This document shows, in pieces, positions 1,641-11,390 of a stretch of 27,633 nucleotides of DNA. Below the pieces are notes generated by a model. It was given only the letters and a program-made list of their open reading frames with translations. It ran no database searches and was not told the DNA's origin. A program made the translations under genes and the position numbers. Source of the DNA: a virus (Duplodnaviria > Heunggongvirae > Uroviricota > Caudoviricetes); IMG/VR virus record IMGVR_UViG_2630968911_000005; one strand, 5' to 3'. Position 1 is the stretch's first letter. Every line of letters begins with the position of its first letter.

Positions 1641-2183
1641 TTAAGAATCAGCCTGACTCGGGATCAGTTTTTGCCAGATAACTGAAACGTATTTTGCCAG
1701 GTAACGGGCGTCATCAAGTGCATTATGGCGCTCACCTTCGAATGGAATAGCCGTTCTGGCATCGAAGTCTATGGCTTTCCCCAGCTCAACGATTGTGCGT
1801 ACATCGCGATCGTTGTAGTAACGCCACGGGCAGGGGATCCCCTGCCGTTCGTATGAACGGCGCAAAATCGTGTTGTCGAAGTTGGCTCCATTTCCCCAAA
1901 CCTGAACAAAAAATTCACCGGAGTTTTCGTCGATAAATTCTCGCAATTGTAACAGTGCATCATCTAACGGGATTTCATCGGTCATAATGGCAGATTGCGC
2001 TTCGCGTGATTGCTTAAGCCACCATTTAATGGTGTCCCGATCAATGACTCCGCCAGCAGTTTCCAGATCGATAGTCTTACTAAATTCCGGTCCCATATCT
2101 CCGGTTTGCGGATCGAAAAATATTGCACCTATTGAGATGATCGGGGCATCAGGATTTTTTCCCATGGTTTCAAGGTCGATCAT
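1641..2183 (-). CDS. DnaQ-like DEDDh 3'-5' exonuclease; start uncertain (longest ORF runs to 2333, overlapping the upstream gene)
   Basis: Exo I motif MIDLETMG and Exo III motif HNALDDARY are present. The internal ATG at 2181-2183 avoids overlap with the upstream gene, whose stop is at 2231. Confidence 0.8.
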   Translation of the reverse strand: MIDLETMGKNPDAPIISIGAIFFDPQTGDMGPEFSKTIDLETAGGVIDRDTIKWWLKQSREAQSAIMTDEIPLDDALLQLREFIDENSGEFFVQVWGNGANFDNTILRRSYERQGIPCPWRYYNDRDVRTIVELGKAIDFDARTAIPFEGERHNALDDARYLAKYVSVIWQKLIPSQADS

Positions 2184-2230
2184 TAGATGGTCACACGTCC
2201 TGCTGGTGGATGTGATTTCGTGATGACCGT

Positions 2231-4111
2231 TCACCTTAATTGGGTGATCTGCCGTCTCGCCAGTTTCATTATCGCTATTGTGATGCTGATTGCCGCCAGT
2301 GTTCTCCTTGTGTGGATGTTCAGCGCCTTCCATTTCCTCCGGATCATCTCCTGAACTTCAACCTGATACTCTTCATCGAATGTTTCTTGGTATGTTGCGT
2401 CGCCCATCACCGCGCCACAATCAGGGCAGTTGCCGCCGCCGGTCTGACCGCAGGCGGTGCAGGCTTTTTCCACTTCCTGTTGCGCCACTGGTTCAGGCTG
2501 TTTCGTTTCTGGCTCGTTTTGTAACGCATTTGGACTGTTTTGTTCCGCTTTTTGGTAGTTCCGTTCCGATTCATGCTGGTTCTGGTTCACAGAATCGCGG
2601 GTCTGGAGCCCCTTAACCCATTTCGGATCATTCGGGTCACTAATCCCTTCAACAAATTCACCACGTGATGCAGCAAGCAACTTATCGGCGTCAGGCTGGC
2701 TGATATTGGCTGCCTGCATAATTTTGTTTACTTCGTCAGCGGTAACTTTTATCGGCTCTGGTTGTTCTGAATCTTCAGCGGTATCTACATTTTGCGGTAA
2801 GCCCGTGTATGTGCCATTTTTTCGGGCAAAATATTCTTCTTTTGTGATTTCAGTGGCGCCAGCAGCCAGTGCCTTATCCAGACCAGAGAGTTTGTTTGCG
2901 CGACCGTATTTTTCTCCGTCCTTATCTGCGAAGAGGAAATAGAACGGCCCCTCACGCTCTACAGATGGTTCAGCTTCCGGCGCGGTTTCATTTTTTGGGA
3001 TATCAGATACCTCAGTTTCCACTGCATCAGTTTGTGTTTCTGATGACTGGAGAACATCAACAGTGCCCAGGTCTGTTTCTTCATTCTCAAACACGCCCTT
3101 TGTCGTCAGGTATTCGCAGATATATTTGTTCAGTGCTACGGGATCTTTGTGAATGTCGATCGGACGCTCACGGACAAGGCCAAAAATAGTTTGGCGGTCG
3201 TAGCGAAGGGCATCAGGCTGTTTGCGCATTGATGCCGAGATACGCTTCCAGTCTTCGCGGTCGTTGTCGATAACTTCTTTTTTTGCCCAGCGATGGATGC
3301 TGCCGTCAATGTTTCCGGCATCCACATCACTAGGCCAGAGAGCGTAGGCCAGTTCGTCATCCAGTGTTTTCCATGTCTGCTTGTATTCGCGATGAATGGC
3401 AGCAATGACCGGGCTGATTTTTCCTGTTGAATTTTCAGTGTACTGTTGATTGGCTCTGGCGCGGGCGAGATCAACAACAGACGTGTATTTTCCGGTTTCC
3501 TTGCGTTCACCTTCGCGACGTTTTTTCCAGATGCGCATCTCTGCCTGAATTTCGGGCCATTTAGCACCAGGAATACATTTATGCTTAACCCACCCAATGG
3601 CGTGCAACTTAAGCTCCGGATACATGGCGTTAACTTCTGGCATTTTCATCAACGCTTCAACGATATGTCCGTCGAATGTTGCCATGTCTTCCTGCAACAA
3701 TTCCTGTGCGCTAATAACCATATCAACGGTGATGTTTTCACATGTGTCGAACTTAACCATGACAGCGTTCTGTACTTCAGGGGCCAGCTTGTCAAAAGTG
3801 ACGTTCATCGGATCGGATTCAGTCTCAACCGGGACAAAAGAAGCAGACTCCTCATCCCAGCGGTTTTCCTGCATATATTCAGCATCCCATGAATCGAGGG
3901 CAGGGCGGGGTATGCCAGGTTTATCCTCGCAGACAATAAATTTATAAGCGCAGTCCTGAGCAGCCGGATAATGTTCCAGGAATTGCCAGTGAAATTTTGC
4001 TCGAGCACGGCGTTCGTCGCCAGCTTCAATGGCTGTGGCTACAGCCACAGCGCCTTCTTCCCTTGTTGCCAGTTCGTCAGGAATAGCGGCGCAAATAAAG
4101 ACTTTACTCAT
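2231..4111 (-). CDS. Large early-operon protein, RecE (exonuclease VIII) N-terminal-region-like, ending in a Cys4 zinc ribbon; no recognisable nuclease domain
   Basis: Long ORF; ATG at 4109-4111 (MSKVF...) is preceded by GAGG 9 nt upstream. Internal segment KLLAASRGEFVEGISDPNDPKWVKGLQTRD resembles RecE as recalled. C-terminus has CTACGQTGGGNCPDCG. The acidic central region is low complexity. Confidence 0.6.
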   Translation of the reverse strand: MSKVFICAAIPDELATREEGAVAVATAIEAGDERRARAKFHWQFLEHYPAAQDCAYKFIVCEDKPGIPRPALDSWDAEYMQENRWDEESASFVPVETESDPMNVTFDKLAPEVQNAVMVKFDTCENITVDMVISAQELLQEDMATFDGHIVEALMKMPEVNAMYPELKLHAIGWVKHKCIPGAKWPEIQAEMRIWKKRREGERKETGKYTSVVDLARARANQQYTENSTGKISPVIAAIHREYKQTWKTLDDELAYALWPSDVDAGNIDGSIHRWAKKEVIDNDREDWKRISASMRKQPDALRYDRQTIFGLVRERPIDIHKDPVALNKYICEYLTTKGVFENEETDLGTVDVLQSSETQTDAVETEVSDIPKNETAPEAEPSVEREGPFYFLFADKDGEKYGRANKLSGLDKALAAGATEITKEEYFARKNGTYTGLPQNVDTAEDSEQPEPIKVTADEVNKIMQAANISQPDADKLLAASRGEFVEGISDPNDPKWVKGLQTRDSVNQNQHESERNYQKAEQNSPNALQNEPETKQPEPVAQQEVEKACTACGQTGGGNCPDCGAVMGDATYQETFDEEYQVEVQEMIRRKWKALNIHTRRTLAAISITIAIMKLARRQITQLR

Positions 4112-4203
4112 TTGTTTTAACCTCATGACAGATTTAAGGATGAACAAATCCCTGCCATTGCTGGCATATAAGAATGAAACCGGATATTTATTACGGAACT
4201 GTT

Positions 4204-4395
4204 TTAAAGACCTGCCGGGATTTCGATATTATCCTGGTGAATAACTTTATCGACCGGGTAACAGTTACCGGGAATTTTCTGTTCGGTTGCTGCAGTCATA
4301 CACTCCTGCATTGTCCTGTGAACACTGACTGCAATATCAACTGGCTCTCCGGAAACAAGAAAAACTGTCAGAACAAGCACAAATGCTGAATTCAT
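4204..4395 (-). CDS. Small hypothetical protein with N-terminal signal-peptide-like hydrophobic segment
   Basis: 63-aa ORF (MNSAFVLVLTVFLVSG...). Its ATG overlaps the stop of the upstream gene (ATGA, 4392-4395), suggesting translational coupling. Confidence 0.5.
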   Translation of the reverse strand: MNSAFVLVLTVFLVSGEPVDIAVSVHRTMQECMTAATEQKIPGNCYPVDKVIHQDNIEIPAGL

Positions 4396-4580
4396 TGTGC
4401 ACATCCTTTTGGCATCAGACGTAAACGAGCCAGCATTGAAACAATGCATATTTTATTTAATAGCTCCCGTTCTTGTTTTCTCTTGTTAATGGCATCTTCA
4501 GTAAATACTGGGTTACTGATAGTGACACCAATTTCAAAACAACCTTCAGACGTATTAACGTTTGGTAATAACGTTTTCAT
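4392..4580 (-). CDS. Small hypothetical early-region protein (62 aa)
   Basis: ATG at 4578-4580 with GAGGA about 9 nt upstream. Sits where lambdoid phages carry kil/cIII-like small genes. Function not recognisable. Confidence 0.5.
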   Translation of the reverse strand: MKTLLPNVNTSEGCFEIGVTISNPVFTEDAINKRKQERELLNKICIVSMLARLRLMPKGCAQ

Positions 4581-4663
4581 TATCGCGTCCTCAACAATGA
4601 ATTTTGTGATGCAGTGCCTGGTGCCTCCAGGTGACGTTAACCAGTTAACAATTAACGCCGGAT

Positions 4664-4993
4664 ATGTGCTGTGGCAGCCGCATGTTCTGGTTCGATAAGT
4701 CTGACGAACGGGCGATATTCAGCGATATCAGAAAAGAAGGATACACATTACGCAATGGGAGACGCTTGATTATCAGCCCTGACATTATCGCAGATTTTCG
4801 TGCATTATCATTTGCAGACGCATCTTTTTCGATGGTTGTATTAGACCCTCCGCATCTTGAGAGTGTTGGTGATAACGCCTGGATGGGAAAGAAATATGGA
4901 CGGCTGAATAAAGATGCCTGGCGTGATGATTCGCGACAGAGATTTAAAGAAGCCTTTCGGGTGTTGAGGCCGCACGGCGTTCTGATTTTTTAA
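4664..4993 (+). pseudogene. Truncated DNA N6-adenine/N4-cytosine methyltransferase fragment (DPPH motif)
   Basis: ORF contains SFSMVVLDPPH followed by RVLRPHGVLIF, the pattern of amino-methyltransferase motif IV and a downstream block. It stops right after, with no continuation in any frame. Confidence 0.5.
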
Positions 4994-5415
4994 TGGAATG
5001 AAACGCAAATACCGGTAAGCCAGATTCTGGCACTGACAGACAGAAAACCTGTTATCTGTCAACGAACAGGGAAAAAACGATAAAACCCACTGGATTATTT
5101 TTATGAAAGAGGCATCCAGTGAGTAGATTCGTAAGGCTACAGATACGTATATCTGAATAATTAAATTCAGTTCTGTAAATAAAATTTAATCCTTAACCGG
5201 ATGGATTTCTGCACCCTCAGAACATCAGGAGGCCGCCCGAAAGGGCGGTAGTGAAATGCGAAAGTTCAAAATTATTATTGAAACGGGAATAGCTGGTGGA
5301 GATTTTGAGGATGTATTCGAAGTGGACGATGACGCAACACCTGAGGAAATTCATGACGGAGCATAAGAAATTTTCTTTAACTACTGCAATTACTCATACC
5401 ACGAAATAAAAGACG

Positions 5416-5607
5416 ATGAGGAAGAACAAAGTGGCTGATTTTTGTTCAGCTAAATATAACATCAGTTTTGAAGAGCGGGATGAACTATTAATGGACTATG
5501 GTGAGTTACGCGGTGGAAGTGCTGCTGATGTCGAATCCTAGCGTGATGACTATGAAGCGGGAAAAACTCCGGTCGAAGCATATTGTGATGAGTGGGGCGA
5601 TGAATGA
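5416..5607 (+). pseudogene. Small ORF with in-frame amber codon (TAG 5539-5541); read-through frame stays open to TGA 5605-5607
   Basis: Manual translation: MRKNKVADFCSAKYNISFEERDELLMDYGELRGGSAADVES-TAG-RDDYEAGKTPVEAYCDEWGDE. The extended frame ends in an ATGA overlap with the next ORF. Confidence 0.3.
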
Positions 5608-5891
5608 GCGAGATTAATTATCAGGAAGGGCATGAAACGGCGGGGCAAGCAAAACCAGTGGCATGGCGATATCGCTACGTGAAAAAAGGCGTTACGGACT
5701 TTCAGGGGAAGTAGTGGTCTGGTGACTGGAAATATGTACCGAAAAAAGAGGATTGTAACGACAGGCCGAACTATCAAATTCAGGCCTTATTCACTGCCTC
5801 ACCAGTCCCAGTTACATCAGAAGAACTGGTTAAAGCTGTGCACTTTTATGAACAACTAAAACGCGAAAATCCACCAACATCCGGCAACTAG
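5604..5891 (+). pseudogene. Small ORF with in-frame amber codon (TAG 5712-5714); 95-codon frame if read through
   Basis: Manual translation: MSEINYQEGHETAGQAKPVAWRYRYVKKGVTDFQGK-TAG-WSGDWKYVPKKEDCNDRPNYQIQALFTASPVPVTSEELVKAVHFYEQLKRENPPTSGN. The downstream segment reads like protein and has no stops for 58 codons. Confidence 0.3.
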
Positions 5892-6145
5892 ATTAATGGA
5901 TTAACTATGTCGGTTAAACGACCAGCCAACTGAAAAAGCGGAAACCTGATTACAGGTTGCCAGATAAGGCAATGAGCTACCTGGCGCGGAACGGACTGAT
6001 AAGTATGGGGAATGTTTTACGATGAACCTTTAGACTAAAGAGTTTGTAACGCTATGTAAGTGATTTTTTCTGGTTTAGATATTTATATGTCCGGCCAAAT
6101 TGAGGTGTGTTTAAATGTAATTGCACATTGATTGTAGGAGGAATA

Positions 6146-6325
6146 ATGAAAAACGCATTGCAGTTTTTGTTTGTTGCGTTCTGGTTGTTCGCATCATGTA
6201 TGCCCATCATCTTCACAGCAAGGTATATGGAAAAAGTTGATGTTTTGATATTAATATTTGGATATATAAATGCCCTTTTTTTAGGGGTGTTCATGGCGGT
6301 CATGTGCATTGAATACTGGCGGTAA
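6146..6325 (+). CDS. Small hydrophobic protein (59 aa, two predicted transmembrane segments)
   Basis: ATG at 6146 preceded by AGGAGG 6 nt upstream. Product MKNALQFLFVAFWLFASCMPIIFTARYMEKVDVLILIFGYINALFLGVFMAVMCIEYWR. Confidence 0.45.
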   Translation: MKNALQFLFVAFWLFASCMPIIFTARYMEKVDVLILIFGYINALFLGVFMAVMCIEYWR

Positions 6326-6659
6326 ATACAGCGAACTCCATTGGTTTAGTTGGATATTTACTGTGCTGGACAAAAACGGTTTGCGGGGAAATCTTAGTTA
6401 AGTAGAATGACTGCGGGTGCTTGAGGCTATCTGCCTCGGGCATGGACACCAACGGCAGATAGAGAAAAGCCCCAGTTAACATTACGCGTCCTGCAAGACG
6501 CTTAACATTAATCTGAGGCCAATTTCATGCTAGACACATGTAGGTTAGCCTCTTACGTGCCGAAAGGCACGGAGAAGCAGGCTATTGTTAACACCAAGCT
6601 GTAATGTCCCCTTTGAACCATTCTAAAATGTCCCCAGACAATTCTCTGGGGGATTTTTC

Positions 6660-7973
6660 ATGATCAAAGAGACTGTTACGATGAGTCATAAGGAACTCCA
6701 CCGACTTCAGATTATTCAGGAACAAGCTGCGGCACGCATTGGCATTTCTATTCGGCAGGTTAAACGTCTGGTGCAACGGTATAGAAATGAAGGGCCTTCT
6801 GGTCTGGTTTCCCACCGACGTGGAAAGCGTCCTAATAATTCCTTTTCTACTGAATTCAGAGCAACAGTAATTTCACTCCTCAAAGGCCGTTACGCTGATT
6901 TTGGACCTACGTTTGCGTGCGAAAAATTGCGCGAGATACACGGTTTATCTTTATCCGTTGAAACTCTCAGAAAGTGGATGATAGAAGAGGGGTTATGGCG
7001 TGAACGCCGTCGTAAAATTGCCCGTATATATCAACGCCGCATGCGACGACCATCTTACGGTGAACTGATCCAGATTGATGGCTCACCTCATGACTGGTTT
7101 GAAAATCGAGGCCCCAGATGTACACTGATCGTTTTCATTGATGATGCCACCAGTGCGTTGATGGCGTTGCGTTTTGTGCCTGCTGAAACAACCCGGGCTT
7201 ACATGGAAACCCTCCGGGGTTACCTTAATGATCATGGCGTACCGCTCGCTCTCTACTCTGATAGACACAGTATATTCAGGGTAAATAACCCAGAGCGGGA
7301 AGGTGAGCTGACCCAGTTCACTCGTGCGATAAAGACACTGGGCATCGAGCCAATCCATGCCAACAGCCCGCAGGCAAAAGGGCGGGTAGAGCGCGCCAAT
7401 CAGACACTACAGGACAGGCTGGTCAAAGAAATGCGGCTTCAGAATATCAGTGATATTGAAACAGCAAATGCATGGTTGCCGACCTTTATTGAAGCCTATA
7501 ACAACCGGTTCGCTACGTCGCCTCGTACTACTGATAATGCTCATCTTGATGTGCACCATTCTGAAGAGGAACTGGGTTATATCTTCAGCCTACAGGCGAA
7601 GCGCGTTCTGTCTAAAAATCTCACTTTCCAGTACAAAAGCAGTGCGTTTCAGGTACGCAGTGAGGGCCGGGGATATCGACTTAGGCATTCGGTTGTTACT
7701 GTATGCGAGAACTTTGACGGTGAAATTAACGTTCTGTATGACGGGAAAGCGCTGGGCTGGGAAAAGTATGTTGATGGCCCGGAGCCTATACCACTGGATG
7801 ATGAAAAGAGTGTCCATGAACGAGTGGATAATGCCCGTATTGATTTACGCTCAAAATACTATGTTAAACCTAAAGCTGACCATCCCTGGCTTACGCGCCG
7901 AACGCAAAGTCATCAGCAAGTTAAGCCCCCGAAGTTACCTAAAAAGAAGCCTGATCCCGATAAAAAAGATTGA
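6660..7973 (+). CDS. DDE transposase/integrase, rve superfamily with N-terminal HTH; IS481-family or ISNCY(IS1202-group)-like
   Basis: 437-aa ORF. N-terminal pattern RQVKRLVQRYRNEGPSGLVSHRRGKRP; catalytic D (IQIDGS), D (LYSDRHSIF) and E (GRVERANQTLQ). RBS GGGGGA upstream of ATG. Confidence 0.8.
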   Translation: MIKETVTMSHKELHRLQIIQEQAAARIGISIRQVKRLVQRYRNEGPSGLVSHRRGKRPNNSFSTEFRATVISLLKGRYADFGPTFACEKLREIHGLSLSVETLRKWMIEEGLWRERRRKIARIYQRRMRRPSYGELIQIDGSPHDWFENRGPRCTLIVFIDDATSALMALRFVPAETTRAYMETLRGYLNDHGVPLALYSDRHSIFRVNNPEREGELTQFTRAIKTLGIEPIHANSPQAKGRVERANQTLQDRLVKEMRLQNISDIETANAWLPTFIEAYNNRFATSPRTTDNAHLDVHHSEEELGYIFSLQAKRVLSKNLTFQYKSSAFQVRSEGRGYRLRHSVVTVCENFDGEINVLYDGKALGWEKYVDGPEPIPLDDEKSVHERVDNARIDLRSKYYVKPKADHPWLTRRTQSHQQVKPPKLPKKKPDPDKKD

Positions 7974-8005
7974 AACCAAGATCGATTCGGTTGAGTGCAT
8001 TGATC

Positions 8006-8896
8006 CTACCCACGTAATATGGACACAGGCCTAAGCGAGGTTCTGGTTTTCAATTGTTCCGGACTGAGGCCGCCACACCAACTGTGCCGCCGCCACCGAT
8101 TGTAATCACATTCGATATAATTAAATACCGTTGCCCGCATTATTTCCCGGCTGATAAAGTGTTTTCCATGGATACATTCCACTTTCAGCGAATGAAAGAA
8201 GCTTTCCACGCAGGCATTATCGTAGCAGCAACCTTTTGCGCTCATACTTCCACGCAGATTATGCCGCTTCAGTTGCGCCTGATAATCTGCTGAACAGTAC
8301 TGGCCTCCACGGTCCGTGTGAACGATAACGTTCCGGGGCCTCTTACGCCGCCACAGCGCCATCTGCAGGGCATCGCAGGCCAGTTGCGCCGTCATGCGTG
8401 GCGACATTGACCAGCCAATAACGGCACGTGACCACAGGTCAATGACCACTGCCAGATACAGCCAGCCTTCATCTGTACGTAAGTACGTGATGTCTCCTGC
8501 CCACTTCTGGTTCGGGCCACTGGCGTAAAAATCCTGCTCCAACAGATTTTCTGACACAGGCAGGCCGTGTGCGCGGTAGCTGACCGGGCTGAACTTCCGG
8601 GAGGCCTTTGCCCTCAGTCCCTGACGGCGCAGGCTTGCCGCCACGGTTTTTACGTTAAAGGGGTAACCCTGAGCACGCAGTTCATCCGTCAGGCGTGGGG
8701 CACCGTAACGCTGTTTTGACCGGGTAAAAGCCGCGAGGACAACGCTGTCGCAGTGTTGGCGGAACTGCTGACGCGTGCTTATCCTTGTCCGCCGCTGACA
8801 CCACGTATACCAGCCGCTGCGGGCCACCCGGAGCACGCGGCACATTGCTTTGATGCTGAACTCAGCCTGATGTTTTTCAATAAAGACATACTTCAT
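8006..8896 (-). CDS. insF: IS3 transposase OrfB (InsF), DDE integrase core
   Basis: Protein matches IS3 InsF as recalled ([21 protein letters not shown] ... DRGGQYCS ...) except at the extreme C-terminus. Confidence 0.9.
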
Positions 8897-9192
8897 TTCA
8901 GGCGCTTCGCGAAGTATGTCGCGGCCTTTTGGAGGATAGCCAGCTCTTCATCCCGTTCTGCCAGCTGGCGTTTGAGACGTGCAATCTCGGTAGACATCTC
9001 CAGTTCACGTTCAGAAGACGTCTGCTGATTTTGCTGTTTACTGCGCCAGTTGTAGAGCAGTGATTCATACAGGCTGAGTTCACGGGCTGCGGCAGTAACA
9101 CCGATGCGTTCAGCAAGCTTCAGGGCTTCACTGCGAAATTCAGGCGAATGCTGTTTACGGGGTTTTTTACTGGTTGATACTGTTTTTGTCAT
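8893..9192 (-). CDS. insE: IS3 transposase OrfA (InsE), HTH protein
   Basis: [32 protein letters not shown]... matches IS3 OrfA as recalled. The ORF track begins 3 codons upstream (9201). Confidence 0.9.
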
Positions 9193-9669
9193 GTGAGTCA
9201 CCTCTGACTGAGAGTTTACTCACTTAGCCGCGTGTCCACTATTGCTGGGTAAGATCACATATCCATTCATAGGGTAGATTCTTAAGTCGCGTTTCTGGTG
9301 TTCATTTTCGGGTGGTTTGTTACTTGTTTTACCGGGGATATGCCAGAAACGCGCTGAGTCAGTCTGGGCGGTGCGCGTAATGAGGCGTTATGGTAAATAG
9401 CCTATGCTAATGTCCGCTAAGAGCAAGAAGCGGAAGTTGGCAGTTTTGTGGACTGTCCCCACAAAAGTGACTACAGAAATAGTTGCAATTCATAATTGAT
9501 CATGGGTTGTCAGTTAAACTCGTGGCGATTTAAATAGACTAATTGGGAGTGCGTCCATTACTTATATCTTGTAATGTTAACTATCAGAAATGATACAAAG
9601 ATAATATGTCTTTAAAGAAAAGGCTGATGGCGAAAAGTGGCCCGATGAGGGCCACAATACGGCTGTCAC

Positions 9670-10002
9670 TTAGACGTAAATATCAATGGTGCCAGCGGTA
9701 TTTGTATCGTCTTTTTTCTCTTCTTTTTTATCAGGCTGAACTGTCGCGTCTTCATTCTTTTTCTCTGCCTGCTGCCTTAACAACTGCTCCAGTTGAGCCC
9801 AGAGGCTTTCAATTTGCTTCTGTACCAATGCAGCCATTTCTTTTTTCTGCTGTGTCGTCATCCCCTCTTCCGATGAGATTTTCCCAAGCTTTTCAGTCAG
9901 CACCTGAATTTGTCTTGTGATTTTGGCTATTTCTGATGTTCCTTCCGGGGCGGAGTTGTTTGAAATAACGGTTGAGGTATTTCCCTGAATTGTGACAGAC
10001 AT
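9670..10002 (-). CDS. flxA: FlxA-like protein (FliA-regulated prophage gene)
   Basis: 110-aa product matches E. coli K-12 FlxA as recalled. RBS AAGGAG upstream. Confidence 0.9.
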   Translation of the reverse strand: MSVTIQGNTSTVISNNSAPEGTSEIAKITRQIQVLTEKLGKISSEEGMTTQQKKEMAALVQKQIESLWAQLEQLLRQQAEKKNEDATVQPDKKEEKKDDTNTAGTIDIYV

Positions 10003-10025
10003 AGATTTCTCCTTTTAAAAAAGCA

Positions 10026-10052
10026 CTATCGGCATGCACAAAAAAATCTTTA
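10026..10052 (-). promoter_or_regulatory. Sigma-28 (FliA) class 3 flagellar-type promoter for flxA
   Basis: Minus strand reads TAAA-N15-GCCGATAG (consensus TAAA-N15-GCCGATAA), ending about 24 nt upstream of the flxA ATG. Confidence 0.6.
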
Positions 10053-10204
10053 ATCGTATTTCTTGTGTCATTAATTGTTTGATGTTCAGATTGTTTTCCT
10101 CGCGGGCTGGCGCGCCTCAGAAAGTAAAGCTTGTTGACAGGGGTAAACGTTCGGCAATAATTTTCTGCCGCATGCGGGTGTTGCATAAAACGTGTTACGT
10201 TCCT

Positions 10205-10510
10205 TTATCGACAGGTCAGGTCACCGCTCACCCGCCGACGAGAAAGCAACACTGACATGCTAAAGCAAAAAATAGATGAATAAGTTGAGTTGTGCATATG
10301 TAGCCTGACCGTCACAAAGTATATGGTGTCTGTACCAGTAAGATGATGGCCGGACTCTTTAAAAACGAGCTGACCTGCACAATACAGGATGGACTTAGCA
10401 ATGGCTGCTCCTGGCACAAAGCGGACAGTGATCACCGTTCTTACGACTACTTTCTGACTTCCTTCGTGACTTGCCCTAAGCATGTTGTAGTGCGATACTT
10501 GTAATGACAT
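10205..10510 (-). CDS. ydfV: Hypothetical protein (YdfV-like position and length, 101 aa); doubtful gene
   Basis: ORF divergent from relB, same position and length as K-12 ydfV. No clear RBS or motifs. Confidence 0.3.
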   Translation of the reverse strand: MSLQVSHYNMLRASHEGSQKVVVRTVITVRFVPGAAIAKSILYCAGQLVFKESGHHLTGTDTIYFVTVRLHMHNSTYSSIFCFSMSVLLSRRRVSGDLTCR

Positions 10511-10523
10511 TTGTAATTACAAG
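10471..10523 (+). promoter_or_regulatory. relBE promoter (TTGCCC-N17-GATACT) with overlapping operator repeats (relO)
   Basis: CTTGTAATGACATTTGTAATTACAAG at 10498-10523 has repeated TTGTAAT hexads with dyad symmetry, just upstream of relB. Confidence 0.6.
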
Positions 10524-10534
10524 AGGTGTAAGAC

Positions 10535-10774
10535 ATGGGTAGCATTAACCTGCGTATTGACGATGAACTTAAAGCGCGTTCTTACGCCGCGCTTGAAAAA
10601 ATGGGTGTAACTCCTTCTGAAGCGCTTCGTCTCATGCTCGAGTATATCGCTGACAATGAACGCTTGCCGTTCAAACAGACACTCCTGAGTGATGAAGATG
10701 CTGAACTTGTGGAGATAGTGAAAGAACGGCTTCGTAATCCTAAGCCAGTACGTGTGACGCTGGATGAACTCTGA
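10535..10774 (+). CDS. relB: RelB antitoxin
   Basis: 79-aa product matches K-12 RelB as recalled (MGSINLRIDDELKARSYA...). Stop overlaps relE start (TGATG). Confidence 0.95.
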   Translation: MGSINLRIDDELKARSYAALEKMGVTPSEALRLMLEYIADNERLPFKQTLLSDEDAELVEIVKERLRNPKPVRVTLDEL

Positions 10775-11061
10775 TGGCGTATTTTCTGGATTTTGACGAG
10801 CGGGCACTAAAGGAATGGCGAAAGCTGGGCTCGACGGTACGTGAACAGTTGAAAAAGAAGCTGGTTGAAGTACTTGAGTCACCCCGGATTGAAGCAAACA
10901 AGCTCCGTGGTATGCCTGATTGTTACAAGATTAAGCTCCGGTCTTCAGGCTATCGCCTTGTATACCAGGTTATAGACGAGAAAGTTGTCGTTTTCGTGAT
11001 TTCTGTTGGGAAAAGAGAACGCTCGGAAGTATATAGCGAGGCGGTCAAACGCATTCTCTGA
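10774..11061 (+). CDS. relE: RelE mRNA interferase toxin
   Basis: 95-aa product matches K-12 RelE as recalled (MAYFLDFDERALKEW...). Confidence 0.95.
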   Translation: MAYFLDFDERALKEWRKLGSTVREQLKKKLVEVLESPRIEANKLRGMPDCYKIKLRSSGYRLVYQVIDEKVVVFVISVGKRERSEVYSEAVKRIL

Positions 11062-11132
11062 ACCAAAGCATGACATCTCTGTTTCGCACCGAAGGTGACA
11101 CTTCTGCTTTGCGTTGACAGGAGAAGCAGGCT

Positions 11133-11288
11133 ATGAAGCAGCAAAAGGCGATGTTAATCGCCCTGATCGTCATCTGTTTAACCGTCATAGTGACGGCACT
11201 GGTAACGAGGAAAGACCTCTGCGAGGTACGAATCCGAACCGGCCAGACGGAGGTCGCTGTCTTCACAGCTTACGAACCTGAGGAGTAA
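11133..11288 (+). CDS. hokD: Hok-family small membrane toxin HokD (RelF), 51 aa
   Basis: Manual translation MKQQKAMLIALIVICLTVIVTALVTRKDLCEVRIRTGQTEVAVFTAYEPEE. Below the ORF-track size cutoff. RBS GGAGAAG upstream. Confidence 0.85.
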   Translation: MKQQKAMLIALIVICLTVIVTALVTRKDLCEVRIRTGQTEVAVFTAYEPEE

Positions 11289-11356
11289 GAGACCCGGCGG
11301 GGGAGAAATCCCTCGCCACCTCTGATGTGGCAGGCATCCTCAACGCACCCGCACTT

Positions 11357-11390
11357 AACCCGCTTCGGCGGGTTTTTGTTTTTATTTTCA
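11357..11390 (+). terminator. Rho-independent terminator after the relBE-hokD operon
   Basis: Stem CCCGC/GCGGG with TTCG loop, followed by TTTTTGTTTTTATTTT. Confidence 0.6.

Follow-up and report, generated by a model that had tools for sequence, protein, structure and literature searches.

Analysis of the 27,633-nucleotide stretch of the virus record IMGVR_UViG_2630968911_000005 (Caudoviricetes; hereafter the window), a Qin-type lambdoid prophage of Escherichia coli in which the open reading frames (ORFs) for RelB, RelE, FlxA, YdfV and HokD encode the K-12 proteins, reveals that positions 6586–11119 very probably form one transposon of the IS1202 family, of the lineage of the insertion sequence (IS) ISEsa1, which moved as a unit into the start region of hokD. 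The transposon spans 4534 bp (3274 bp after subtraction of a secondary IS3 copy and its target duplication), running from 6586 (5'-TGTTAACACC...) to 11119 (...GCGTTGACA-3') with termini of the form 5'-TGT...ACA-3', and is flanked by a perfect 15-bp target duplication, GGAGAAGCAGGCTAT. This 15-mer is present twice in the whole window, each copy abutting one of the inferred ends (6571–6585 and 11120–11134), and once at the unoccupied site. The left copy comprises the Shine-Dalgarno sequence of hokD and the AT of its ATG, and the terminal AT of the right copy together with the next G restores the hokD start codon. The unoccupied site is found in E. coli KN13-4, where the sok/hokD locus at the equivalent prophage position is intact and devoid of relBE; once 6586–11134 is removed from the window, the two sequences align without a break, at 96.9% identity over 897 bp across the junction. 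In hok loci without relBE across E. coli genomes, the match to the right junction starts only at window position 11119/11120. Among the 5426 complete E. coli genomes that underlie all population counts given here, the junction relE–right end–hokD was recovered in 1164 and the left part of the transposon in 789.

The left terminal inverted repeat (5'-TGTTAACACCAAGCTGTAATGTCCCC, 6586–6611, plus strand) matches the reverse complement of the right one (...GGTGACACTTCTGCTTTGCGTTGACA-3', 11094–11119, minus strand) at 19 of 26 positions, the former beginning with TGTTAAC and the latter closing with GTTGACA. Each end carries two motifs with an ATGTC core: on the left a direct pair, (A/G)AATGTCC (6603–6635, plus strand), whose members at 6603–6611 and 6627–6635 lie 24 bp apart, and on the right inverted motifs at 11094–11102 and, in weaker form, at 11069–11077. 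In copies with unrelated left flanks, homology begins at 6586. On the other side, positions 11106–11119 (GCTTTGCGTTGACA) are the only match in the window to the inverted terminal 14-mer that has the left-flank repeat GGAGAAGCAGGCTAT next to it, and the right end fits GGACATTTCTAYTTTGCGTTGACA-3', a terminal pattern shared by simple IS of Chlamydiae, Castellaniella, Elusimicrobia and Alphaproteobacteria. An earlier note on this DNA, made by eye, had reported that the ends of the older element were not visible near the transposase gene; indeed, no right inverted repeat is present in 7974–9600 (best ungapped matches 15–16 of 24), and neither an inverted AATGTCCCC nor the terminal 14-mer occurs in 7974–9520. 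A short element of ~1.5 kb ending close to the gene, as that reading would have it, has to be abandoned: the gene belongs to a known, ISEsa1-type element whose right end at 11119 lies ~1.9 kb past the interval then considered, and flxA, ydfV and relBE are included in it. Two other candidates for the right end were rejected, namely position 9438, where the window and a Phytobacter plasmid diverge (the lineage of 92% identity continues beyond it to the real end at 11119), and a palindrome AATGTCCGC-N12-GCGGACATT after the XerD arm of the cer-like site described below, which is not conserved in the lineage of 70% identity. Xer-mediated integration of the whole unit, in the manner of integrative mobile elements exploiting Xer (IMEX), was likewise rejected, the left junction having no Xer site and the duplication fitting transposition.

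The transposon splits a single hok/sok locus at the hokD start codon. The 5' regulatory half (sok, hok leader and mok start; 6415–6585, plus strand) precedes the left end, the Rfam sok model RF01794 matching in full length at 6415–6586 with 104 bits (gathering threshold 59) and ending at the left junction. The 3' half, the coding sequence of hokD, also called relF (11133–11288, plus strand; Pfam HOK_GEF at 11133–11285, 83 bits), follows the right end, and the two halves are contiguous in KN13-4. Between them the order is left end, transposase gene, a 54-bp spacer, the cer-like site, flxA (9670–10002, minus strand; Pfam FlxA, and annotated by the Prokaryotic Genome Annotation Pipeline (PGAP) in E. 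coli C / WG5 and W5-6), ydfV (10205–10510, minus strand; no family match), the type II toxin-antitoxin genes relB (10535–10774) and relE (10774–11061; both on the plus strand, Pfam RelB 112 bits and ParE_toxin 51 bits, in agreement with PGAP) and a right end of 58 bp. Among the ORFs of the unit, family matches were obtained for the transposase, flxA, relB, relE and the IS3 genes only, with no tnsA, tnsC or target selector (tnsD/tnsE/tniQ). The relBE genes are cargo of the transposon, which brought them next to hokD; through the insertion hokD lost its connection to mok, sok and the promoter of its own locus, and the duplicated Shine-Dalgarno sequence and AT rebuild the hokD start site directly 3' of relBE. 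After the insertion hokD would be left under the relBE promoter. Co-transcription of relBEF is known, as a passage of PMC5120126 citing Gotfredsen and Gerdes (1998) indicates, and it is because the transposon inserted at the hokD start that hokD has no promoter, mok or sok of its own and is co-transcribed with relBE. Passages of Ramisetty and Sudhakari (2019; PMC6379469), which cite Ramisetty and Santhosh (2016), describe relBE as horizontally acquired, of plasmid origin and integrated into hokD, truncating the ancestral hokD/mokD reading frame. Whereas the passages concerned name no vehicle, ends, duplication or transposase, relBE here is the cargo of a defined transposon.

Sister copies retain the left end, the transposase, the cer-like site, a toxin-antitoxin pair and the right end, the middle part being swapped. 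Four of them, in comparison loci numbered here with L, have perfect 15-bp duplications of their own: a 3.3-kb copy in plasmid pEnt261 (L003, 2573–5879; GGAGAAGAAGGCCAT), a 6.1-kb copy in pSHV12-1301491 (L090, 1757–7849; GGAGAAGAAGGCCAT) and a 12.8-kb copy in pMRY16-398_1 (L086, 516–13358; GGAGAAGTCAGCTAT) lie at the same position in three further hok genes, and a 4.3-kb copy in a Scandinavium chromosome (L037, 2927–7201; CATTAAGCTGCAAAT) lies in a target that is not hok. A fifth, L077, has a decayed pair of duplications. The middle part encodes cytochrome b and a cation diffusion facilitator transporter in pSHV12-1301491, the metal resistance functions ncrABCY and chrBA, together with HupE, in pMRY16-398_1, and GrpB and a hexapeptide acetyltransferase in the Scandinavium copy, which has a TacA/GNAT toxin-antitoxin pair instead of relBE. 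About 12 of the ~20 distinct left junctions are hok leaders, and in ten of them the cut points differ by no more than 1 nt and fall past the AT or the ATG with which hok translation starts. Most copies from Enterobacterales are placed within 1 nt of one position in different hok genes, nearly always in one orientation. At hok junctions the transposase reads in the direction of hok, except in the Citrobacter portucalensis copy (L020), and matches to the Rfam sok model end at most 2 nt from the left end in five other loci. Immediately 5' of the duplicated 15 bp there is a short palindrome, TGCCGAAAGGCA. The hok flanks have visibly diverged among the copies, the transposon is 92–100% identical, and the break falls exactly at the ends. 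Diverged flanks, together with duplications that are each copy's own hok sequence, therefore indicate separate site-directed insertions and not recombinational spread. Hok start regions would then be an actively chosen target, which would place the transposon on plasmids and prophages.

Several side observations concern hok loci as insertion sites. At 2900–2940 of L021 a right end (...GCGTTGACA) is followed by 10 bp, GAAGGCTATG, and then by a left end (TGTTAATCC...), so that a single hok start appears to harbour two elements head-to-tail. ISKpn8 of the IS3 family splits the hok leader that precedes the transposon in pEnt261 (959–2572), and in E. coli C-type strains (L001, E. coli C / WG5, ~4150–5380; window ~6486) an ISSen4-like element of the same family lies in the orphaned sok/hok leader, being another IS at another site than the IS3 of the window. 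Hok leaders seem to collect insertions.

The internal cer-like Xer site (9288–9398, plus strand), recognised by homology to ColE1-type plasmids, consists of ~80 bp of accessory-type sequence and the core GGTGCGCGTAA-TGAGGCG-TTATGGTAAAT (9370–9398). The layout of the core is dif-like, with XerC and XerD arms of 11 bp each around a spacer within the usual range of 6–8 bp, and each arm agrees at 10 of 11 positions with what we take to be the arms of E. coli dif (GGTGCGCATAA and TTATGTTAAAT). The region is 75–80% identical to thousands of small ColE1-type plasmids; on the accessory side the homology stops at 9288, ~80 bp upstream of the core, and on the other it ends exactly at the XerD arm. Both arms stay invariant even between transposon copies whose overall identity is only ~70%, the core of the Scandinavium copy being GGTGCGTACAA-TTAGGGGG-TTATGGTAAAT. 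In sites of the cer/psi type, accessory sequences on the XerC side bind PepA and ArgR/ArcA; in the IS3-free sequence here, TGCATATCCATTCA, which presumably resembles an ARG box, adjoins the position of IS3. The XerC arm also matches, at 9 of 11 positions, AGTGCGCATAA, the start of the dif-like sites listed in Table 8 of PMC10132070. Insertion of an IS beside a resident cer-like site, as for ISAjo2 at pdif, was considered and rejected: the site is internal and diverges together with the element, down to ~70% identity. In the Citrobacter portucalensis copy (L020, 4478–5645) ~1.1 kb of foreign DNA comes after the cer-like core and contains two additional TTATGGTAAAT arms in direct orientation, and the last site combines a foreign XerC-side arm with transposon sequence on its right side; these hybrid sites look like products of Xer-type integration of circular DNA.

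A lone transposase of the TnsB/MuA type is expected to give cointegrates with two directly repeated copies, as in Tn7 tnsA mutants, Mu and Tn5053. Sites of the cer/psi type recombine only as direct repeats within one molecule (bioRxiv 10.64898/2026.02.23.706985). Cointegrates being expected and direct repeats being needed, the internal cer-like site could plausibly serve for resolution that depends on the host, in which XerCD, with PepA/ArgR, would resolve cointegrates. The transposase would bind the ATGTC-core motifs at each end and cut the target with a 15-bp stagger, and the toxin-antitoxin pair would stabilise the transposon. It is possible, and we put it forward tentatively, that the ISEsa1 lineage represents an unrecognised class of 'self-stabilising' transposon that homes to hok translation starts on plasmids and prophages, whose own toxin-antitoxin pair next to the right end controls the silenced hok (as in the relBEF operon), and whose built-in cer-like site, with host XerCD/PepA, resolves replicative cointegrates in place of a resolvase.

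A number of points weigh against these proposals. Eight distinct left junctions lie outside hok, some of the hok-adjacent copies may have been inherited and not arisen independently, and the enrichment at hok could stem in part from selection or from the sampling of plasmids. The second motif of the right end is weak (5 of 9 positions), and the ISfinder entry gives ISEsa1 as an IS of 1609 bp. The competence of the cer-like site is uncertain, only ~80 bp of accessory-type sequence being shared with ColE1-type plasmids; a full cer site needs more than that, and the site might be plain plasmid-stability cargo. Transposition, hok targeting, Xer resolution and control by the hairpin of the transposase leader (see below) are all inferred from sequence. 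The most serious alternative, which we nevertheless consider rather unlikely, accepts the unit as real but denies a choice of target. A single ancestral insertion in a hok locus would have spread through recombination among hok homologues, or because selection favoured the loss of hok function, and the cer-like site and relBE would be plasmid-maintenance cargo that the element captured and that plays no part in its transposition. Many plasmid copies do share backbone neighbourhoods (the psiAB leading region), a cer site together with a toxin-antitoxin pair is what plasmids typically carry for stability, and insertions outside hok exist. Recombination would not, however, create duplications that on both sides are the individual copy's own hok sequence, and the contrast between diverged hok flanks and a transposon of 92–100% identity, with its break exactly at the ends, also argues for repeated insertion; the cer-like site may nonetheless be cargo only.

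It remains to reconcile a unit of this size with ISEsa1 as published, i.e. an IS of 1609 bp with terminal inverted repeats matching at 15 of 22 positions and neither a duplication nor a known target (Harmer, Pong & Hall 2023, PMC10132070). In the same work the IS1202 family, formerly the IS1202 group of ISNCY, is characterised by a TnsB-like transposase, imperfect terminal inverted repeats of 24–26 bp with TGT/ACA termini and an additional transposase-binding repeat near each end. Duplications in the family have a length typical of the subgroup, 3–5 bp, more than 15 bp, or none reported. The unit described here resembles ISEsa1 in its transposase (98% identical) and in having the same left end, the 439-residue protein of ISfinder corresponding to the 446-residue ORF read from its second methionine. 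It differs in being ~1.7 kb to more than 11 kb longer and in its conserved right end, 15-bp duplication, cargo and preference for hok starts. The duplications, 15 bp here and at four other insertions and 15–16 bp in a Hahella relative, fit the long-duplication class and contradict the absence recorded for ISEsa1. In the lineage of 92% identity exactly 1609 bp separate the left end from the junction with ISEsa2, an element of the IS110 family, so that the published end is a secondary insertion junction; this accounts for the poor inverted repeats and for the missing duplication and target. It is conceivable, but very improbable in our view, that ISEsa1 is a genuine 1.6-kb IS without duplication that ends ~30–40 bp past the cer-like core, that relBE reached hokD separately, and that the 15-bp repeat and the right-end match are coincidental. 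The published description and the divergence of variant cargoes at ~9424–9438 speak in its favour. The coincidence of 1609 bp with the ISEsa2 interruption, the four size variants, in all of which the shared conserved right end is bordered by a perfect 15-bp duplication, and the fit of this end to the pattern of simple IS from other phyla speak for the longer transposon. The segment 9424–9438, 30–40 bp past the XerD arm, is the point at which cargo varies among copies and also a hotspot of secondary insertion (L007–L013, ~4536–6017; L090, 3593–4831; L009/L022, ~4532–5752), where ISEsa2 occupies a single point across many genera and another element has inserted at a second point.

The Hahella relative, from Hahella sp. 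SMD15-11, is a clean IS of 1449 bp with at least ten copies (L025–L031, L035, L036 and L050) and duplications of 15–16 bp. Its ends are TGTTAGCCCAAAGCTGTAATGTCCCC...AAATGTCCCC on the left and ...GGGGACATTTTAGAATTGGGTTGACA-3' on the right, and the left end of the window (TGTTAACACCAAGCTGTAATGTCCCC...AAATGTCCCC from 6586) is the same. The two elements share a transposase at 62% identity, a left end of the form TGTTA...AATGTCCCC...AAATGTCCCC, an inverted right end closing with TTGACA-3' and the length of the duplication, whereas the Hahella IS lacks cargo and a cer-like site and shows no evident preference for a target. Simple IS of similar type occur in Rhabdochlamydiaceae and Castellaniella. 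As the left ends of the window and of Hahella are the same, the two copies of AATGTCCCC that the earlier note had spotted upstream of the transposase gene, and which are indeed there, correspond to the conserved subterminal motif pair and are likely candidates for transposase-binding sites. Two matches stand against 0.22 expected in the window, at least two being reached in 3 of 100 shuffles, and the motif is absent elsewhere. The pair and its spacing are kept in copies from Enterobacterales, Hahella, Chlamydiae, Elusimicrobia, Acidobacteria and Massilia, and the pair is also found in Patescibacteria.

The transposase gene (6660–7973, plus strand) encodes an ISEsa1-type DDE transposase of 437 residues. 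The view that this rve-family gene is part of an older mobile element holds, and its assignment to IS481 does not: the NCBIfam model NF033594 (transpos_ISNCY_2) matches residues 14–368 with 456 bits (cutoff 250), and the IS481 model NF033577 comes second with 125.7 bits, below its cutoff of 224. The catalytic triad expected of a DDE transposase with an RNase H-like core, D140 (QIDGS), D201 (YSDRH) and E245 (GRVERAN), is kept in homologues from five phyla. A sequence search against solved structures gave no match to TnsB or MuA and only a weak one to an integrase (E = 0.0099). The protein is 98% identical to WP_004196353.1 of the ISEsa1 family (437 of 446 positions, with one gap of nine residues), and plasmid copies ~97% identical at the DNA level are annotated as 'IS1202-like element ISEsa1 family transposase' of 446 residues. 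The sole difference from this plasmid form is the in-frame loss of SINRHITQE in the N-terminal helix-turn-helix, through a 27-bp deletion (window 6720–6725; intact ORF at 2647–3987 of pEnt261) that is found in E. coli chromosomal copies and is common to those that match the window without gaps. PGAP splits the intact 437-codon ORF into a C-terminally truncated pseudogene and a separate ydfW (7824–7973, same frame).

In the leader of this gene a hairpin with a stem of 8 bp and a loop of 6 nt, followed by ATTTTTC (6631–6652, plus strand), overlaps the ribosome-binding site GGGGGA, as had been described before. Its arms TCCCCAG (6631–6637) and CTGGGGG (6646–6652) form eight pairs, GGGGGA ends 6 nt ahead of the ATG at 6660, and the leader 6586–6680 folds with –26.2 kcal/mol (z = –3.6). 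The position of the hairpin is kept in diverged Enterobacterales copies with changed stems, CCCCG/CGGGG in L038 and CACCCA/TGGGGGG in L019, and a family-wide RNA alignment of the leader gave almost no signal of covariation. The hairpin may dampen expression of the transposase from read-through or outside transcripts, here those of the retained hok promoter.

The IS3 copy at 8001–9257 (minus strand; orfA 8893–9201, orfB 8006–8896) is a secondary insertion in the transposon. The earlier note's delimitation of this copy, with its inverted repeats and CAT duplication (7998–8000 and 9258–9260), is confirmed by the sequence, by the IS3-free locus and by the match of OrfA and OrfB to IS3 family models: in E. 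coli W5-6 the site without IS3 has a single CAT and is 100% identical across the joined site. The element begins 5'-TGATCCTACCCAC and ends ...GGGTAAGATCA-3', with inverted repeats of the TGATC type in which 22 of the first 40 bases match, most densely in the first 12 bases and in GGACAC. It starts 27 bp past the transposase stop at 7973, so that it follows the gene as stated; it does not, however, follow the element, as it lies inside, between the stop and the cer-like site, dividing the 54-bp spacer between them at 109 bp upstream of the Xer core. Indeed, copies in unrelated contexts are homologous from 6586 across the IS3 site to at least 9438, which places IS3 within the transposon. IS3 is a late and rare insertion, present at this site in 5 of the E. 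coli genomes. Hardly credible in consequence is a short IS481/ISNCY-like IS ending close to the transposase gene, with IS3 just outside and flxA–ydfV–relBE as ordinary prophage DNA: the start of IS3 27 bp past the stop, the second rank of the IS481 model and the 1609-bp listing of ISEsa1 in ISfinder (PMC10132070) would suit it, but the IS481 score is below its cutoff, 7974–9600 holds no right inverted repeat (best ungapped matches 15–16 of 24, no inverted motif), homology runs through the IS3 site to at least 9438, and the unoccupied site and the 15-bp duplication place the right end at 11119. The window IS3 is 99.8% identical to IS3 copies of 1258 bp, its length of 1257 bp being due to a single 1-bp deletion. 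The missing T lies at the 3' end of orfB (window 8040–8055; CAATTTGAA changed to CAATTGAA on the coding strand) and alters the last residues of OrfB, whose canonical end we take to be ...FENQNLA*; the five genomes with IS3 at this site carry the base. Given the nine-residue deletion in the helix-turn-helix and the IS3 insertion, the window copy is probably immobile.

Among known systems, the ISAjo2-group IS, the 'site hunters' of pdif and dif, share with this transposon a single TnsB-like DDE transposase, TGT/ACA termini, an additional subterminal transposase-binding motif, insertion at specific sites in a fixed orientation and an association with Xer sites. They are IS of 1.5 kb with 5-bp duplications, inserted beside a resident dif-like site at 5 bp from its XerC arm, whereas the present transposon carries its cer-like site internally, makes duplications of 15 bp and inserts in hok. 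The transporter IS of the IS1202 family, tISKpn21, tISKpn65 and tISRel10, hold, like the present transposon, passenger DNA that separates the transposase gene from one of the ends; theirs is one unknown ORF within a total of ~2–2.5 kb, in contrast to the cer-like site, toxin-antitoxin module and variable middle of 0.3–9 kb, including metal-resistance operons, of the ISEsa1 lineage. Tn7 and Tn5053-Tn402, the TnsB/TniA transposons, have a related type of transposase, multiple binding sites per end and target-site selection, and Tn5053 and Tn3, the latter through the res systems of its family, possess an internal site dedicated to cointegrate resolution. The unit described here has no TnsA, TnsC/TniB, TniQ or resolvase gene and a 15-bp instead of a 5-bp duplication, and resolution is proposed to proceed via host XerCD at the cer-like site. 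Disruption of hok by mobile DNA is not without parallel, as hok loci of E. coli K-12 are said to have been inactivated by IS, namely hokA by IS150, and hokC and hokE by IS186. The literature searched contained no account of the transposon, of its ends or of a preference for hok, ISfinder and TnCentral being beyond the scope of the search.

E. coli K-12 MG1655 retains only 7789–8000 and the sequence from 9258 onward, the left end and the sok/hok leader being gone; therefore, K-12 ydfW/'intK' is the tail of an ISEsa1-type transposase, its last 49 codons. Two further observations concern the surrounding prophage. From the dicB side to transposon DNA (window 4665–7788, compared with 1835–4000 of the K-12 locus L089) there is no megablast match to the dicF-dicA-dicC-ydfX segment, and the prophage immunity region therefore differs from that of K-12. 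In the hokD 3' region (11297–11378) an isrK-like Rfam match remains below threshold (25 bits, gathering threshold 50; E = 0.025) and is probably the 3' fold of the hok mRNA or a terminator rather than isrK.

IS3 and the transposase family are ordinary and already known; what is new is the redefinition of ISEsa1 as a hok-homing transposon with a cer-like site and a toxin-antitoxin pair, and as the origin of the relBE-hokD arrangement. ISEsa1, which figures in many surveys of resistance plasmids as a 1.6-kb IS without duplication or target, appears to represent the left third of a transposon with cargo. The same transposon backbone carries nickel, chromate and cation-efflux genes between plasmids of Enterobacterales. 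The analysis raises two testable ideas, that a transposase recognises hok start regions and that host Xer recombination serves as the resolution system of a transposon. Moreover, it names a vehicle for the delivery of relBE, the paradigm type II toxin-antitoxin system of E. coli, into the Qin prophage.

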